64,000 nucleotides of DNA, from assembly GCF_050920415.1 (NCBI RefSeq), contig NZ_CP169309.1. One strand, given 5' to 3'. Shown piece by piece: positions 5,968 through 19,770 of the stretch. Position numbers and translations under genes: made by a program. The notes under the pieces are model-generated. The model saw nothing but the letters and a program-made list of their open reading frames with translations. It did not search any database and was not told the origin of the DNA. The DNA comes from Escherichia coli. GTDB lineage: Bacteria; Pseudomonadota; Gammaproteobacteria; Enterobacterales; Enterobacteriaceae. The first letter of the stretch is position 1, and each line of letters opens with the position of its first letter.

Positions 5968-6912
5968 TTACTCCCAATCTTCGCCATATTTAGCGTGCGC
6001 AACTTTATAGTTTTCTTGCGCCCGATTTAATATTCGTTCGTTTAATATGTTACCGTCTTCGTCAACTAATACGGTAATCGTGCTACATTTGCAGTTAATA
6101 GAATTTGGGGATCTGCTCCACCATTCGCGCTGCTCATCTATGGTGTATGTTTTCCCGTGCCGTTGCGCGTGCGATAGCCTGGTTGTCGGTGACAATGCCG
6201 AAATGTGCATTTGCATAGTGCGCAGATTAAATTCTTCTGTCGCCGCTTCTGCCTCATCCATACGCGCTGTGCGTAACGCTGTGCATATTTCAGTTCGGGC
6301 AATACGTTTGCATCTGTATAGCGGTAACTGCGTATCCTGATTCAATGTGCGCGCTATTTCCAGTGGATTTAAACCACGGGCCATGCCTTCAGTTAATCGG
6401 CGGGCCATATCCTTTTTTATCTGTGCGGTCAGACCGCGCATCTCTTCAAATACACGGGTACGCACCAGGGCAAGGCGTGTGCGGTAAGTTGTGCTGGATA
6501 GCACGGCGGATACATCAGGATAAGCGCTTGAATATGTGACAGACTGGTTAGCAAGGTTGGCGTATTCCTGCGCGGTCCCTCGCTGATATGCAACCTTCAC
6601 GTACTCCTGCCAAAACCAAAAACTTTCCGGGTCGGTTAGCTCGAATATCTCATCAATCATGTTGCTGGCATCCTCCAGCATGTCGTGCAATTCATCCATG
6701 TAAATCTGGAAGGTGTATTTCTTATTAACAGCCAGGCTATATTGTATTCTGTCCAGTATGGCGATATATGGATCGGCTATTTTCTTCAGGCAGGATTTAA
6801 AACGCTTAATAGCGCCCGACCGCAACTTACCTGTCATGGTCGGGTCTTCGGTGTTAGATGGCATTATCGCGGAGGGCGGTATTCTCCTGATTATTTTCTT
6901 CACCTTCATCAT
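5968..6912 (-). CDS. phage head morphogenesis protein (Mu F / SPP1 gp7-like)
   Basis: 314-aa ORF directly after the portal gene; true start possibly internal (table start overlaps the portal gene end). Confidence 0.4.
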   Translation of the reverse strand: MMKVKKIIRRIPPSAIMPSNTEDPTMTGKLRSGAIKRFKSCLKKIADPYIAILDRIQYSLAVNKKYTFQIYMDELHDMLEDASNMIDEIFELTDPESFWFWQEYVKVAYQRGTAQEYANLANQSVTYSSAYPDVSAVLSSTTYRTRLALVRTRVFEEMRGLTAQIKKDMARRLTEGMARGLNPLEIARTLNQDTQLPLYRCKRIARTEICTALRTARMDEAEAATEEFNLRTMQMHISALSPTTRLSHAQRHGKTYTIDEQREWWSRSPNSINCKCSTITVLVDEDGNILNERILNRAQENYKVAHAKYGEDWE

Positions 6913-8227
6913 CGTTTTCCTCGTCTTCCAGTTCTACTTCACTAGCTGGGCCATCGTATCCGGCAGCTTCGCGGATCTCATCGCCGCTAAATATTTCCTC
7001 ACCAGTAGCGAGACATGCCTGATTGATTTGCGCCATCTTGTGTGCCGCTTCCAGTAGTTCGGCTTTTGTCATAGCATTCAGGTCATCCCATAAAACTGAT
7101 ATATCGACTGGCATACTGATAAGGCGTAGATCTGCCATCTTGCGGAATAGTTCTTCAAGCTCGCCTCCGATTTCCTCACGACGGGTCATACAGCGATTAT
7201 TGAAGTAGCGGAGGTCTTCAGTTGATGCGCGTTCACCCTGCTGATTGCCAACCAGAATACGCGTTGGAATGTCGATACCAGCGGCGGCGGTTTGCAGGTT
7301 GACGTCATAGGTTGCAGATGGATCGGCTACGGCAGTGACCAGCGGGCTAACGGTAGCTCCCTGTAATGCCATCATCACATCATTACCTTTGTTTATATCC
7401 TCTGCCGCTTCATTGAATTTTTCGCGTAGCTCTGTAACGTCGCAACCGTATGTTGCAGCCAGAGAACGGAAATCAATCTCTTTGTCGAATGAGATAGCTA
7501 GTTGACGTGCGGCGTTTTTAAGGAATGACTCACCGCTACCACCTTCCACTTTCTCCAGCGAAACGAAAGCGTTATAGGATGGCTCAAGGAAAGCGATAGC
7601 ATCATCAGAATAGTCACCAAATATAAAGATCCGGTCTGGATGGATTTTCCTTGCTATGGTCTTATTGTTGATGCGTTCTTTGTATTCCCACCATGTCGGC
7701 AGGCCATAGTTTTCATTATCCGGGTTTTCTTCGAAGTCCTTCGGCGTCAGAGCGCCAGCCCACACAGGGGTGAATTTGGCAATGCCTGCACCTTTCGTCA
7801 CTGGCTTATCCCACGGCTGGCTATCTCTGACATGAATTAACAGGCCCGCATAACGACCGATGAGGCGGCGGCGATCACATTCAGCTATGACGCGCCAGAA
7901 TCGATTATCGAATCGTTTTTTGATTTCTCTTTCCCACGGCGTTTCCTTTTCTGCTTTCTCGTCTTCCGTGCCTTCAATCATCGCTGGCCTGGTGCGCCAA
8001 CACGTCGTGATAATCTTTTCAATAGCACCGTGAGCGATACCACCGCGACGATACAGCTTATAAAGATCATCATAGGTGATCTCTTCTTTGAATCCGTATT
8101 CACTCCAGGCGGCATCACGCTTTGCATCAATACCCATTGAGAAAGGATGCGCGGCGGCATAGCGTGCAAAGGCCACCTGACGTTGTGACAAGGCAGCATT
8201 AACCGCCAATTCTAAATTGGATGGCAT
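6854..8227 (-). CDS. phage portal protein
   Basis: ~457-aa ORF immediately downstream of terL; start chosen at MPSNLE with an AGGAG SD. Confidence 0.45.
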   Translation of the reverse strand: MPSNLELAVNAALSQRQVAFARYAAAHPFSMGIDAKRDAAWSEYGFKEEITYDDLYKLYRRGGIAHGAIEKIITTCWRTRPAMIEGTEDEKAEKETPWEREIKKRFDNRFWRVIAECDRRRLIGRYAGLLIHVRDSQPWDKPVTKGAGIAKFTPVWAGALTPKDFEENPDNENYGLPTWWEYKERINNKTIARKIHPDRIFIFGDYSDDAIAFLEPSYNAFVSLEKVEGGSGESFLKNAARQLAISFDKEIDFRSLAATYGCDVTELREKFNEAAEDINKGNDVMMALQGATVSPLVTAVADPSATYDVNLQTAAAGIDIPTRILVGNQQGERASTEDLRYFNNRCMTRREEIGGELEELFRKMADLRLISMPVDISVLWDDLNAMTKAELLEAAHKMAQINQACLATGEEIFSGDEIREAAGYDGPASEVELEDEENDDEGEENNQENTALRDNAI

Positions 8228-8306
8228 AATGTTTACTCCTGAATGCATGTTTACGCGTTGCTACGCGAAAAATAGAAAAATTCGTGATGGATTTGTGAGA
8301 TGGTTT

Positions 8307-12934: not shown

Positions 12935-13135
12935 TTACTTATTCCCCATTCGCGCGTCGTGTTCCTCTTGCGCTCGTTTGTTCTCCTGTGATTTGAAGTA
13001 ATAATTAACGGCAAATGTGCCTATGGTTGATAAGATACCCACAAATACAGCAACATCATTAATGGTTATCGCACCAAAAAAGGCCGTTACGGCCCCTACT
13101 GCATACGCGCACACCTCCCGTATTTTGTCGAACAT
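12935..13135 (-). CDS. pinholin-type holin (S21-like)
   Basis: 66 aa, two hydrophobic helices, charged C-terminus [15 protein letters not shown] resembling S21; GGAGG SD. Confidence 0.6.
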
Positions 13136-13153: not shown

Positions 13154-13177
13154 GCAAAAACCCGGCGCGGGGCCGGG
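13154..13177 (-). terminator. rho-independent terminator just upstream of the holin (tR'-like)
   Basis: Minus strand CCCGGCCCCGCGCCGGG hairpin followed by TTTTT, about 20 nt before the holin RBS. Confidence 0.5.
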
Positions 13178-13413
13178 TAATTACAATTTCGCATTGTTAG
13201 GAAATATTTTAATCTATTTGTTTTTTATGCGCGATTATGGCTACAGTTTCTTAATTAATAGCCCATTATCAAGTAATAATTGCATTTGCTCGCGGCTCAT
13301 TAGTGAATCTTTCCAGTATGGGTCATCAATAGTCATAATCATCACTTTGTCGCCTTTTAGCATGTAGGCTATACCGAACAAAGTATGTGAATAAACACCA
13401 TCTTCGATCTCAT

Positions 13414-13596
13414 TCATAGTCCGCTAACCCTTACCACATCGCCGTTATAAAGCATGATTTCAATCATTGCTCGCGTCATCTCGATGAATGGCTTCCTCCA
13501 GTCACCACCATCAATACAGACACGAATATCATCACCTTCCACGCGGTAAAACATCTCGTCGATTAGTGTTACGGCGTATATACCATCTTCAATCAT
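13414..13596 (-). CDS. hypothetical protein, paralog of the adjacent gene
   Basis: 60 aa; shares a YR(V/L)EG...PF(I/L)(E/T)MT...I(I/E)(A/I)M core with the next ORF. Confidence 0.4.
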   Translation of the reverse strand: MIEDGIYAVTLIDEMFYRVEGDDIRVCIDGGDWRKPFIEMTRAMIEIMLYNGDVVRVSGL

Positions 13597-13866
13597 TTAA
13601 CTATCCTCTTTGAATAGCCTAAATTTAATATCGCCAATCTTGCGCCAGTATCCGTGATTAAACATCGCGATGATCTCCGCAGATGTCATAGTTAAAAACG
13701 GTTCATGCCACGGCTCAAGCTGGTGTAATCGCATCATTACGTGTTCACCTTCAAGGCGATAATAAGCGCGTGACGCCAATGACTGATAAACACCGTCATA
13801 TTTATGGTCGCTATTTCCCATTTTTACGCCCCTTAATGGCTCTTTTGATCTGCGTGCGCGTGGCAT
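13597..13866 (-). CDS. hypothetical protein, paralog of the adjacent gene
   Basis: 89-aa ORF, start uncertain; tandem duplicate of 13414-13596. Confidence 0.35.
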   Translation of the reverse strand: MPRARRSKEPLRGVKMGNSDHKYDGVYQSLASRAYYRLEGEHVMMRLHQLEPWHEPFLTMTSAEIIAMFNHGYWRKIGDIKFRLFKEDS

Positions 13867-14011
13867 CGACGAAAGCGATAAACACCGCTACAGGCCAGAA
13901 AGGAATCTCAAGGCCACCACGATCGAGATCATTAGATTTGATAAAACAATACATCAGGATAGCGCCAGCGATATAAAGGAGAAACACAGCAATGATAAGA
14001 CATTCAATCAT
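13811..14011 (-). CDS. small membrane protein
   Basis: 66 aa, two hydrophobic helices; GAGG SD; start overlaps the upstream ORF. Confidence 0.4.
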   Translation of the reverse strand: MIECLIIAVFLLYIAGAILMYCFIKSNDLDRGGLEIPFWPVAVFIAFVDATRTQIKRAIKGRKNGK

Positions 14012-14144
14012 CCTCTTTCTCCCCGCCTAAATATTGATATATTTCTTCAGCATTTTCCCCGCGCTCAAAACAATAATGTTCAAACATGCGCCAGTGTTCA
14101 CTAAGAAACATAACAATAAAATTGTTAACGTATTCGTCATCCAT
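14004..14144 (-). CDS. hypothetical small protein (46 aa, not in the ORF track)
   Basis: ATG 14144 with AGAGGA SD; fills the gap between flanking genes. Confidence 0.35.
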   Translation of the reverse strand: MDDEYVNNFIVMFLSEHWRMFEHYCFERGENAEEIYQYLGGEKEDD

Positions 14145-14146
14145 AG

Positions 14147-14398
14147 TTAATCATCCTCTTCATCGTCTTCTTGTTCAGCCAGGAAATCATCGACGGCACG
14201 GTAAGTGACTGGCGGGACGTATTCGAAATCATCACTATCAAGATCGAGCGTCCGGCTGTCGCCGTCGTCGTCCATCGTGTTCATCCCCAGCTCACCGAAA
14301 GGACCGTATCCAATGTGGCCCAGGTATTCGCAACCAGTCGTAAAGCCAGGGTATTCACCTTTACAACGGATTTTGTAAGGTTTATTTGATGCGCTCAA
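14147..14398 (-). CDS. highly acidic small protein (candidate DNA-mimic / anti-restriction)
   Basis: 83 aa with Asp/Glu-rich stretches (DDDGD, DLDSDD, EQEDDEEDD). Confidence 0.4.
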   Translation of the reverse strand: MSASNKPYKIRCKGEYPGFTTGCEYLGHIGYGPFGELGMNTMDDDGDSRTLDLDSDDFEYVPPVTYRAVDDFLAEQEDDEEDD

Positions 14399-14705
14399 TT
14401 TTTGAGTCTCCGTCTTCTGTCGGGGTTATTTTGTATTCTGCCGCCAGTTCTGCACCAACCAATTCAACCTCGATTTCAGGGAAAGGATTAAGCATCAGTG
14501 CGGCAAAAACAAAATGTTTAACGTGATTTGCATATTCAAGGTGTTTCACGTCAAAAGGTGGTTCCGATACGTGGAAGCATTTAACGTGCGCGTCGTCTTC
14601 AGTAGCTACACGGAAACATACGCCAGGTTGCCCGGCGAATTTGCCATTTTTTTCATCTTCTGAAATAGTGCCACGGAAAACTTTAACGCTGATAAATTTA
14701 GACAT
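14382..14705 (-). CDS. hypothetical protein
   Basis: 107-aa ORF in the co-directional array. Confidence 0.35.
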   Translation of the reverse strand: MSKFISVKVFRGTISEDEKNGKFAGQPGVCFRVATEDDAHVKCFHVSEPPFDVKHLEYANHVKHFVFAALMLNPFPEIEVELVGAELAAEYKITPTEDGDSKIERIK

Positions 14706-14708
14706 TGT

Positions 14709-14963
14709 TTATTCTCCTTCGTAAAAAACAGCTACCAGTTCAGGATTGTTTAATGGGTTGGAGCAAGAATAAAAACCACTTCGCAATAATCCTCTAAGCG
14801 CCTTTATTTTTCTGTGCGCCGGGATTGACTCGCTTAAATAGAAATCATCTTTCCTTTTGTCATAAGGTAGCTCGTAAAACCTACCATAATTGACGAATTG
14901 AACGACGCGGCTGTACTCACCATCAATCCTACTAACGCCGCGCCAAATCCTAAATACAACCAT
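14709..14963 (-). CDS. hypothetical protein
   Basis: 84-aa ORF, 3-nt gap to the downstream gene. Confidence 0.35.
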   Translation of the reverse strand: MVVFRIWRGVSRIDGEYSRVVQFVNYGRFYELPYDKRKDDFYLSESIPAHRKIKALRGLLRSGFYSCSNPLNNPELVAVFYEGE

Positions 14964-14965
14964 AA

Positions 14966-15265
14966 TTAAAACTCCGCACCAGGTAAGCTACGCGCTTCGT
15001 TAATATCGTCCTTTTCAATCCATTTCTTAGCGTGTATATCCATTACGGATATAGCGGCAACTGGCGCATAGTTATTTACTGAGTTGATGTGAAACAATTG
15101 GTTTTTGGTAAAAATCATGTCGTCGTCTGTTATATATAACCAGTCGCCGCGCTTACCAACAACAGTATGAGATCTTCCTAAGCTGTCTTTAAATTCATAA
15201 TTGCAGAAAACATCATCATTAGGCACTTCAACAAAACAGCACGCAATGAATTTAGCACTTTTCAT
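14966..15265 (-). CDS. hypothetical protein
   Basis: Start at MKSAKF with a GAAGGGTG SD; the longer table ORF would run through an intergenic hairpin. Confidence 0.35.
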   Translation of the reverse strand: MKSAKFIACCFVEVPNDDVFCNYEFKDSLGRSHTVVGKRGDWLYITDDDMIFTKNQLFHINSVNNYAPVAAISVMDIHAKKWIEKDDINEARSLPGAEF

Positions 15266-15308
15266 AATTACACCCTTCTGGTTTGATGGGGCCATCCGGC
15301 CCCGTGTT

Positions 15309-15449
15309 TTATTCTTCTTCGTCTCCTTTGAATCCTAAACACTCCGCGTATTCGTCAATGCTTAATGCTTCTTCCCCTGGTGCCAGTAATTCAAAATAGC
15401 GGGCGTATAACTCAAAAACCCAGGCCGGATATTTAGCGTTAGCGTTCAT
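15309..15449 (-). CDS. hypothetical small protein (46 aa, not in the ORF track)
   Basis: ATG 15449 preceded by an AAGGGGGTG SD. Confidence 0.35.
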   Translation of the reverse strand: MNANAKYPAWVFELYARYFELLAPGEEALSIDEYAECLGFKGDEEE

Positions 15450-15460
15450 GGTTCACCCCC

Positions 15461-15733
15461 TTAAGCCATGCGTGCGAATTCAAGCGCTTTGCATTCATAG
15501 TCTTCTTCTGCCTGTTCCACTACACGGATAATCATCTGATCGGCGTTTTCGAAGCCATAACCTTTAGCGAATTCATTAGCACCGCCTTCGTGGTCATGTT
15601 CTGCGTTCATCGCTTCCACATAGTGGAACTCAAGATTGTTAAGGTAGGGACTAGAAACGCCGTCCTCTTTTTCAATCAGATCCCAAATTGCATTGAATCG
15701 GGACTCTGTTTCTTCGTTAATCCAGCGTTTCAT
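15461..15733 (-). CDS. hypothetical acidic protein
   Basis: 90 aa; GGAGGG SD; preceded by a 108-bp intergenic region with an inverted repeat and a G13 tract. Confidence 0.4.
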   Translation of the reverse strand: MKRWINEETESRFNAIWDLIEKEDGVSSPYLNNLEFHYVEAMNAEHDHEGGANEFAKGYGFENADQMIIRVVEQAEEDYECKALEFARMA

Positions 15734-15774
15734 TTTTCTGCCCTCCGCATCGTTCTCTCTTCAGCTTCTTTATA

Positions 15775-15808
15775 ACAAAATGGCACTGCCGAAACAATGC
15801 CATTTTGT
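15775..15808. promoter_or_regulatory. inverted repeat ACAAAATGGCA-N12-TGCCATTTTGT (operator/promoter-like)
   Basis: Perfect 11-bp arms at 15775-15785 and 15798-15808; overlaps a TGTTATAAA extended -10-like element on the minus strand. Confidence 0.4.
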
Positions 15809-15815
15809 AAACTTT

Positions 15816-15828
15816 GGGGGGGGGGGGG
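15816..15828. repeat. homopolymeric G13 (C13 on the coding strand) tract
   Basis: 13 consecutive G at 15816-15828 in an intergenic region directly next to the inverted repeat. Confidence 0.9.
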
Positions 15829-15841
15829 TAGATCACGCTTT

Positions 15842-18870: not shown

Positions 18871-19048
18871 GCTTGTAAATTTTCACAGGCTTAATAGGGA
18901 TGGCGGGTAATTCACCTTCATTTAACGCGCTTGCCATACCCAATATTAAACGCGCTTCAGCACCAGTGACTTTTTTGCACCATGCGCCGCCTGTTTTATC
19001 TTCGAATAAGATAACGGCAAACTGATCGTTTATTTCCAGCTTATCCAT
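18848..19048 (-). CDS. hypothetical protein
   Basis: 66-aa ORF whose ATG overlaps the Q-like stop codon (TAATG). Confidence 0.35.
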   Translation of the reverse strand: MDKLEINDQFAVILFEDKTGGAWCKKVTGAEARLILGMASALNEGELPAIPIKPVKIYKRGDDDEA

Positions 19049-19770
19049 TATTCACCCCGTGTTACTCGTTTAATCTCACTTTCCGCGCGGGCCTCTTCTT
19101 TGAATAGCTCAGCTATGGCGTCTTCATAGAAAACCCGGTATTTTTTCCACCATGTTGATCGGCTTACCGGAAAGACAAGCTGGTTAACCGCCTGCCGGAC
19201 AAGATCTACCGGGAAACGCGAGTACCCGCGCCCGCCGCAGTGTTGGCACGTTTTGAATACTGGCATTTCCGCCGCTTCGCTGGCTGCTTTATCCGGTATC
19301 TCGCCGCGACCTTTGCATTGTTTACAATGATTGCGAACCTTTCCATGCCCCTTGCATTTTTTGCAAAGGTGTTTTTCTCCGTAGTCGTCAAACGTAAATT
19401 TATATCCGCCGCACTCCATACAAGTTTTTTCCGTCGCGGCGCTTTGGCAATAATCCCGAAACGCGAAAACGGCAACAAGAATAATAAGATCATTGCGTTG
19501 TTCTTCATTTAATTCCATCACGTATTCGTAATCTTTCGCCATAGCTCTTAAACGCTCTGTAAGTAATACTACGGCCCTGTGTTTTTCGGCTTGCGATAGT
19601 TCCATCTTCCCTAAAAAAGCGCTATATCCAAGCTCTACGCGCGATTGCGCCATACCAGCGGCGGTAAGCGCATCCGTCGTATTAAGTGCATCAGGTGATG
19701 TTCCCCGGCTTTCGTCTGATAATCGCGGTGATTTTGGGAAGTGGAATTTAAGAATGGATTCTAAATTCAT
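19048..19770 (-). CDS. antitermination protein Q-like
   Basis: 240 aa, cysteine-rich zinc-binding region (CMECGG...CKKCKGHGK...CKQCKGRG...CQHCGGRG), position after ninG/rusA as in lambdoid phages. Confidence 0.55.
   Translation of the reverse strand: MNLESILKFHFPKSPRLSDESRGTSPDALNTTDALTAAGMAQSRVELGYSAFLGKMELSQAEKHRAVVLLTERLRAMAKDYEYVMELNEEQRNDLIILVAVFAFRDYCQSAATEKTCMECGGYKFTFDDYGEKHLCKKCKGHGKVRNHCKQCKGRGEIPDKAASEAAEMPVFKTCQHCGGRGYSRFPVDLVRQAVNQLVFPVSRSTWWKKYRVFYEDAIAELFKEEARAESEIKRVTRGE

Follow-up and report, generated by a model that had tools for sequence, protein, structure and literature searches.

The window analysed here is a stretch of 64,000 nucleotides from Escherichia coli (NCBI RefSeq assembly GCF_050920415.1, contig NZ_CP169309.1), which carries a prophage of the mEpimmI group (mEp010, mEp044, mEp554, MagusPhagus). 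These non-lambdoid temperate coliphages were recently described as a new family-level clade, in a paper that does not discuss the gene considered below (PMC11893012). That gene encodes a small, highly acidic protein of 83 amino acids (aa), which the first-pass annotation had put forward as a candidate DNA mimic in a "cargo island", a fair wording, as the gene lies inside an array of about 27 small co-directional open reading frames (ORFs) between a Q-type antitermination gene and a holin gene (Table 1). Within a conserved block, some 1 kb separates it from the holin downstream; the holin-lysozyme-Rz cassette (from 13135 down) is followed in turn by terminase, portal and head genes.

Translation from the TTG start codon (14398-14396) to the TAA stop codon (14149-14147) gives the sequence MSASNKPYKIRCKGEYPGFTTGCEYLGHIGYGPFGELGMNTMDDDGDSRTLDLDSDDFEYVPPVTYRAVDDFLAEQEDDEEDD. 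The high acidity was borne out: the protein has 22 aspartate or glutamate residues (26.5%) and six lysine or arginine residues, with a net charge of -16 and an isoelectric point (pI) of 4.05, and the three acidic runs on which the mimicry proposal was built (DDDGD, DLDSDD and EQEDDEEDD) were all found in the translation. The charge is distributed in a lopsided manner, since residues 1-38 hold 3 acidic and 4 basic residues and are roughly neutral, whereas residues 39-83 hold 19 acidic and 2 basic ones. Against a background of 13.7% acidic residues (the mean of 41 neighbouring genes), the whole protein is moderately unusual (at least 22 of 83, P = 0.0015), and its C-terminal half strongly so (at least 19 of 45, P = 2.7e-6). 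Among the small ORFs of the window it has the largest net negative charge and ranks second in acidic fraction, after a 46-aa ORF directly downstream. The acidity is kept across the protein's family, where the mean acidic fraction is 25%. No signal peptide or transmembrane segment was evident when the sequence was judged by eye, without a predictor.

Table 1. Coordinates of the acidic gene, its parts and the features around it
Feature	Residues	Position	Strand	Basis and remarks
CDS of the acidic 83-aa protein	1-83	14147..14398	-	ORF list and translation; TTG start, TAA stop
Translation start region		14382..14411	-	GGAG; the upstream gene ends 17 bases inside the acidic gene, in another reading frame
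SH3-like five-stranded beta-barrel core	8-61	14216..14377	-	AlphaFold2 model
C-terminal amphipathic acidic helix	66-80	14159..14203	-	Predicted; prophage subfamily only, ends in the poly-Asp/Glu run 75-83
Acidic run DDDGD	43-47	14258-14272	-	Sequence
Acidic run DLDSDD	52-57	14228-14245	-	Sequence
Acidic run EQEDDEEDD	75-83	14150-14176	-	Sequence
107-aa partner gene (PHROG 23107)		14382..14705	-	Upstream of, and overlapping, the acidic gene
46-aa acidic ORF (PHROG 15754)		14004..14144	-	28% Asp+Glu, net charge -10, pI 4.2
Terminator-like hairpin and U-run		15772..15806	-	Upstream of the block; -20.2 kcal/mol, z = -5.8; not listed by the simple terminator scan
Terminator-like hairpin and U-run		13160..13178	-	Just upstream of the holin; terminator scan; -18.1 kcal/mol, z = -4.4
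Q-type antitermination protein		19048..19770	-	Pfam PF03589 (Antiterm), E 1.9e-29; PGAP; upstream boundary of the small-ORF array
Holin, first gene of the lysis cassette		12935..13135	-	PGAP annotation; downstream boundary of the array; synteny conserved in relatives

The comparative sequence evidence indicates that this ORF is a genuine accessory gene maintained by purifying selection. In E. coli O157:H7 LSU61, where the gene is 100% identical in sequence to the window copy, the Prokaryotic Genome Annotation Pipeline (PGAP) annotates the same coding sequence (CDS), start included (WP_171877289.1, hypothetical protein). Annotations of related phages disagree on the start, which is placed at the TTG, at an internal start (giving 59 aa) or at an internal ATG at M39. 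We compared start and frame in 44 IMG/VR loci and 4 phage genomes; in nearly all of these the reading frame runs open from the TTG or else from another TTG located two codons upstream, with about 50 loci intact. Most loci have GGAGG or GGGGG before the start, in seven the open frame extends to a TTG further upstream, and in one divergent locus an ATG start leads into the same first strand of the predicted fold. In the window the Shine-Dalgarno sequence GGAG (14408-14411) lies nine bases ahead of the TTG, and the 17-base overlap with the upstream gene is near-invariant, with one substitution across five genomes. For 37 distinct sequences, the Nei-Gojobori ratio of nonsynonymous to synonymous substitutions (dN/dS) was 0.12 overall (residues 8-38, 0.09; residues 39-74, 0.15), while the other two frames of the N-terminal half gave ratios of the corresponding proportions (pN/pS) of 1.1 and 2.2. 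Because the frame and the start are kept and dN/dS is low in both halves, we conclude that both halves of the ORF are coding. The mean pairwise identity of the acidic protein (0.86) compares with 0.70 for the 107-aa protein encoded by the overlapping upstream gene, 0.84 for Rz and 0.91 for the terminase and the Q-type protein, and the acidic protein is better conserved than the small neighbouring proteins. An RNA element under the acidic ORF was also considered, but there were no Rfam matches between 10000 and 22000.

An AlphaFold2 model based on a 38-sequence alignment had a pLDDT score (predicted local distance difference test) of 86 and a predicted template modelling (pTM) score of 0.71. 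It comprises five strands (residues 8-12, 24-31, 37-42, 48-51 and 58-61) followed by a helix (66-80), and the same secondary-structure elements reappeared in an independent second AlphaFold2 run. The structure prediction yielded a confident small SH3-like barrel, a fold unlike that of mimics of the Ocr and ArdA type. The pLDDT drops to 76 and then to about 52 in the last two blocks of the model and is lowest over the final acidic run. Each of the three acidic runs takes a different place in the model. DDDGD forms the hairpin turn between strands 3 and 4, followed by R49; in the alignments of both subfamilies of the family, the prophage proteins and the shorter relatives described below, R49 does not vary and D43 and D44 hardly do. 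DLDSDD spans the end of strand 4 and the link to strand 5, ahead of an invariant F58, and at its position the shorter relatives retain the pattern [DE]-x-[DE]-[DE]-F. EQEDDEEDD is the frayed end of the amphipathic helix, whose hydrophobic face is made up of Y66, V69, F72 and L73. The best conserved part across the subfamilies is C-x-GEY-x-GFT-x-G, in the region equivalent to the RT loop of SH3 domains.

Residues 23 and 28 (14330-14332 and 14315-14317) are His and Cys in MagusPhagus, L042 and P0024, as opposed to Cys and His in most homologues; in other homologues the residue at position 28 is Arg, Asn or Gln, so that the swap, which leaves one Cys and one His, is not a strict pattern. Three motif-based assignments were rejected. 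A metal site made of C12, C23 and H28 was discarded on inspection, as it offers three possible ligands only and these vary among homologues; a DxDxDG calcium loop was likewise discarded, as the register of DDDGD does not match that motif. The resemblance of DDFEYIPP to the tail of single-stranded DNA-binding protein (DDDIPF) was dropped, as the segment is internal and corresponds to strand 5 of the model.

The protein matches PHROG 25234 over its full length (residues 1-83 to profile positions 1-83 of 83, E 1e-54). The annotation of this PHROG carries no function, structure or literature, and a literature text search for its identifier found no mention. A word-indexed search of 5.8 billion proteins returned 57 clusters, all from E. 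coli or phage and all unnamed, and in a tblastn search of 50,697 phage records only phages of the mEp type matched. An exhaustive hidden Markov model (HMM) search of 1.84 billion representatives gave 16 matches in total, consisting of the protein's own family, a set of relatives in T1-like phages and three long multi-stretch matches. The protein matched no Pfam family (E <= 10), the family profile gave no match among the PDB chain sequences (E <= 10), and PADLOC models (E <= 1) matched none of five proteins, namely the acidic protein and its immediate neighbours.

The T1-like relatives account for 4 of the 16 HMM matches. They are uncharacterised hypothetical proteins of 52-58 aa that align only to the barrel core, at 42-47% identity and with HMM E-values of 5e-7 to 3e-4, and they come from lytic T1-like Drexlerviridae of Escherichia, Citrobacter and Salmonella; named examples are bas08_0073 of phage DanielBernoulli, HCF1 gp11 and an LL5 protein. 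In a Foldseek search of BFVD the LL5 homologue was matched with an E-value of 2e-5 and a template modelling (TM) score of 0.80, the other matches being uncharacterised small phage barrels. C12, G18, F19, Y25, G30, G35, R49, F58 and the acidic hairpin are common to both subfamilies, and the short proteins are mostly acidic themselves (pI 4.05-4.86). These proteins are true remote homologues of the barrel core. Since they share the core but lack residues 62-83 (the helix and the tail), the acidic barrel is the ancient unit, to which the acidic helix-tail was added in the prophage lineage. The short relatives also lack the 107-aa partner. Their genes always lie directly after a gene for a polynucleotide kinase/phosphatase, within an array of small ORFs that precedes the terminase genes, and in HCF1, a Logan contig and Bas08 (L052-L054) the short homologue overlaps the stop of this gene, which is of the HAD (haloacid dehalogenase) type. 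The polynucleotide kinase of T4 belongs to a counter-defence pathway tied to a small anti-restriction peptide (Stp), and the neighbourhood of the short homologue may be meaningful.

In the prophages, the acidic gene is closely tied to the 107-aa gene, which lies immediately upstream in 38 of 39 IMG/VR loci. After the acidic gene the loci run through an optional 46-aa ORF, a 66-aa membrane protein and one to three genes of PHROG 15318 to the holin. Among seven related phage records, four have both genes and three have neither; among isolated phages, the acidic gene is present in mEp010, mEp044 and mEp554, and both it and the partner are missing from mEp021, mEp013 and mEp515. The acidic gene was found in 34 of 5426 complete E. 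coli genomes, 32 of which have a detectable 107-aa partner, and the two others carry in the same position a 106-aa CDS that we take to be a divergent copy. A search with the 107-aa partner returned 202 clusters, all hypothetical, and no PDB relative of it was found. An AlphaFold2 model of the acidic protein joined to the partner by a linker (paired alignment), admittedly a weak method, had a pTM of 0.43, left the tail disordered and showed no confident interface. The partner gene of the window is 99.3% identical to that of LSU61, with about two mismatches.

In some chimeras found in related prophages, the acidic C-terminal part, starting at D43 or at D54, follows the N-terminus of another gene of the small-ORF array (P0040, P0049, P0051, P0054, P0056 and P0060); in others, the protein's N-terminal half is continued by the C-terminal end of a PHROG 15318 protein (P0044 and P0045) or of the Q-type antiterminator (P0043). 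The occurrence of these in-frame chimeras shows that recombination and deletion are frequent inside the array, and hints, at the level of sequence, that the acidic C-terminal part is portable. In-frame fusion genes within the array are carried at loci L048-L050. The neighbouring small ORFs share a loose pattern, C-x(n)-F-T-x-G-x-x-Y ... D-D-x-G, but paralogy with them is not claimed, as profile-profile probabilities were below 1% and the best HMM match in the window was marginal (7.7 bits).

The DNA-mimic proposal of the first-pass annotation is at most circumstantially plausible. The best-supported reading, a tentative one, is that the acidic protein serves as an electrostatic decoy whose target would be basic and would probably bind nucleic acids, which we regard as a real possibility falling somewhat short of probable. 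The reading is based on the strong purifying selection on an accessory gene, on the SH3-like fold being a protein-interaction fold, on the conservation of the acidic positions across distant relatives, and on two precedents, studied by experiment, that are alike in class of fold and in charge. One of them, CarS1 of Myxococcus xanthus (PDB 2KSS), is a DNA mimic with a five-stranded SH3-like fold, 86 aa long and with a pI of 4.1, in which acidic residues around a hydrophobic pocket capture the DNA-recognition helix of a repressor (PMC2926617); the acidic protein is like it in fold (here predicted), in length (83 aa) and in pI (4.05). The second, TifA (Orf65) of Enterococcus phage phi47, is a small protein with an SH3-like domain that inhibits type IV restriction enzymes, and its surface is unusually acidic, although its authors do not go so far as to name it a bona fide DNA mimic (PMC11322646). 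The two are alike as small phage proteins with an SH3-like domain and many acidic residues (21% in TifA), but TifA has two globular domains and its host is Gram-positive. CarS and TifA are analogies and not relatives of the acidic protein: the family profile gave nothing against all PDB chain sequences, which should include 2KSS, and no sequence similarity to TifA was found by the tblastn search of phage records or the exhaustive HMM search.

The gene encodes an apparently cytoplasmic protein of two parts, the predicted barrel (residues 8-61) and a prophage-specific helix with a flexible poly-Asp/Glu end. Its translation is coupled to that of the upstream 107-aa gene, and the two genes are inherited together. 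As a decoy, the protein would act stoichiometrically as a protein-binding decoy or inhibitor: the barrel would provide the surface for specific docking, and the acidic loops, together with the helix and the tail, would engage a positive surface on a protein of the host or of a rival phage, most probably one that binds nucleic acids. Such a protein would be DNA-mimic-like in the loose electrostatic sense of CarS and TifA, and not a rigid look-alike of B-DNA in the manner of Ocr and ArdA.

Several points weigh against this decoy reading. The Pfam, PDB, PADLOC and BFVD searches gave no homology or specific structural match to a characterised inhibitor or DNA mimic, and SH3-like barrels take many kinds of ligand, so that the fold alone says little. 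The gene comes after the Q-type antiterminator and just ahead of the genes for lysis and packaging. This placement is suggestive of late expression, a timing that would fit poorly with an anti-restriction role; the block may be expressed late through the Q-type protein or as a delayed-early extension. Arms-race genes are usually not highly conserved, unlike the acidic gene. Finally, the strict linkage to the 107-aa partner is left unexplained, and the fusion model gave no confident complex.

Two alternatives dispense with mimicry, and we consider each of them unlikely, if still worth serious thought. In the first, the acidic gene and the overlapping 107-aa gene would form a two-gene module with a role such as superinfection exclusion, defence in the lysogen or control of the lysis switch. 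Their strict adjacency, the 17-base overlap and their joint presence or absence are consistent with this, as is the fact that the block includes a small membrane protein and adjoins the holin. However, the T1-like barrel relatives have no 107-aa homologue and are preceded by the polynucleotide kinase gene instead, the fusion model lacks a confident interface, PADLOC gave no match, and co-inheritance can be explained by physical linkage alone. Moreover, a promoter scan listed no site on the gene strand between about 14400 and 15900 from which a lysogen might express the pair, and its total hits were at chance level; for the same reason, and with no hit near the acidic gene, an own promoter that would make the gene a lysogen-expressed moron was rejected.

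In the second alternative, the barrel would bind a ligand (a peptide or another kind) of an enzyme of the host or the phage, the tail would serve only for solubility or autoinhibition, and the protein would be an adaptor in host takeover or regulation. This would agree with SH3-like domains being generic protein-binding modules, with the best conserved part of the protein being the RT-loop equivalent, and with the T1-like relatives working without a tail. It is at odds with the finding that even the tail-less relatives, most of which are acidic, keep the hairpin with its acidic residues and the [DE][DE]F segment along with the barrel.

A generic resemblance of fold was also seen with Gp54 of phage Bas11 (PDB 9AXB; Pfam PF25180), the trigger of CapRel. 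Gp54 has six strands and is 14% identical to the acidic protein, which itself has no Pfam match, and the paper on Gp54 does not describe it as acidic or negatively charged; the likeness is one of generic fold only.

The strict form of the proposal in the first-pass annotation, a B-DNA mimic of the Ocr, ArdA or Arn kind that would shield unmodified phage DNA by filling the DNA groove of restriction enzymes (type I or III) or of comparable defence nucleases, appears distinctly improbable. It can draw on the very low pI, the clustered carboxylates, the conservation of acidic positions and the existence, in CarS, of a DNA mimic with an SH3 fold. Ocr (T7 gp0.3) and ArdA form elongated dimers with carboxylates that follow the backbone of B-DNA, and T7 expresses Ocr before its other genes. 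The acidic protein is like them in its high content of Asp and Glu, its low pI and its small size, but in the model it is a small globular SH3-like barrel with a flexible tail and not an elongated scaffold; it matched neither their Pfam families nor any solved mimic by sequence (Pfam and PDB, E <= 10), and its predicted fold did not resemble theirs. The C-terminal run, which finishes in a flexible end modelled with low confidence, accounts for nine of its 22 acidic residues. Its gene is far from the early region, behind the Q-type antiterminator, and the prophage already encodes methyltransferases of its own, a Dam-like one for adenine and a Dcm-like one for cytosine.

An auxiliary role in lysis is less probable again. 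It is modelled on a 2026 report of a standalone SH3 protein (DUF7244) beside T1-like lysis cassettes, which was proposed to be an endolysin modulator (PMC13164509), and it has in its favour that precedent and the position of the acidic gene upstream of the holin in a conserved block; against it, neither DUF7244 nor any further Pfam family was matched by the acidic protein or by its T1-like relatives, the genes of these relatives belong to the small-ORF array ahead of the terminase genes and not to the lysis cassette, and no export signal was evident by eye in the extremely acidic sequence (no predictor was run). That the ORF is a functionless or decaying remnant, as the TTG start, the varying choice of start among annotators and the truncated or fused versions in some prophages might suggest, can be dismissed with near certainty in view of the strong purifying selection in both halves, the conserved frame and start, a conservation exceeding that of the neighbours and the confident fold prediction.

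The block around the acidic gene (13241-15733) is bracketed by two strong terminator-like hairpins on the gene strand. The upstream one is preceded, in a 108-base gap between ORFs, by a homopolymer run of about 15 C (about 15821-15836), which could be a slippage-prone tract. None of the neighbours that we tested against Pfam and PHROGs has an assigned function. The ATG of the 46-aa ORF lies 2 bases past the stop of the acidic gene, and this ORF is present in about a quarter of the related loci. Further acidic small ORFs at 15309-15449 and 15461-15733 show that acidic small proteins cluster in the block. Directly upstream of the holin, three tandem paralogues of PHROG 15318 (89, 60 and 58 aa) occupy 13241-13866 on the minus strand, a number that varies from 1 to 3 among related prophages. 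The window and the LSU61 chromosome match without being identical: the window has a single copy of an 84-aa gene, near 14983-15240, and LSU61 has about 280 extra bases (L007 14900-15620 compared with 14900-15340 in the window) that form a second, tandem copy of it. Between the large terminase and a minor head protein, a 464-aa protein (6854-8248, minus strand) is labelled "anti-CBASS protein Acb1 family protein" by PGAP and matches Pfam Phage_portal_3 with an E-value of 1e-17; it is probably the portal protein, and the Acb1 label looks like an annotation artefact.

As things stand, the acidic gene is uncharacterised and belongs with the many small accessory proteins of phages that are acidic, a broad class; it is ordinary in kind but tractable, and as one among very many such ORFs its value is that of a well-defined candidate and not of a finding. 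The family should be easy to study, as there are natural carriers and non-carriers among the mEp phages and a short form in Bas08, a phage of the BASEL collection. In a more far-reaching version of the decoy reading, which we consider doubtful but conceivable, the acidic protein and its T1-like relatives would make up a new family of acidic SH3-fold inhibitors, shared by temperate mEpimmI phages and lytic Drexlerviridae, that neutralises a conserved DNA- or RNA-binding protein of host defence or repair by electrostatic mimicry, and in the prophage lineage a portable acidic helix-tail would have been acquired that widens or strengthens this activity. DNA mimics make up 11 of the 268 anti-defence proteins catalogued in one review, and because they are so few, each new mimic scaffold would help in recognising others. 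If the decoy reading holds, CarS and TifA would be joined by a third acidic inhibitor of nucleic-acid-binding proteins with an SH3 fold, and the acidic protein would apparently be the first of them to come from a coliphage.
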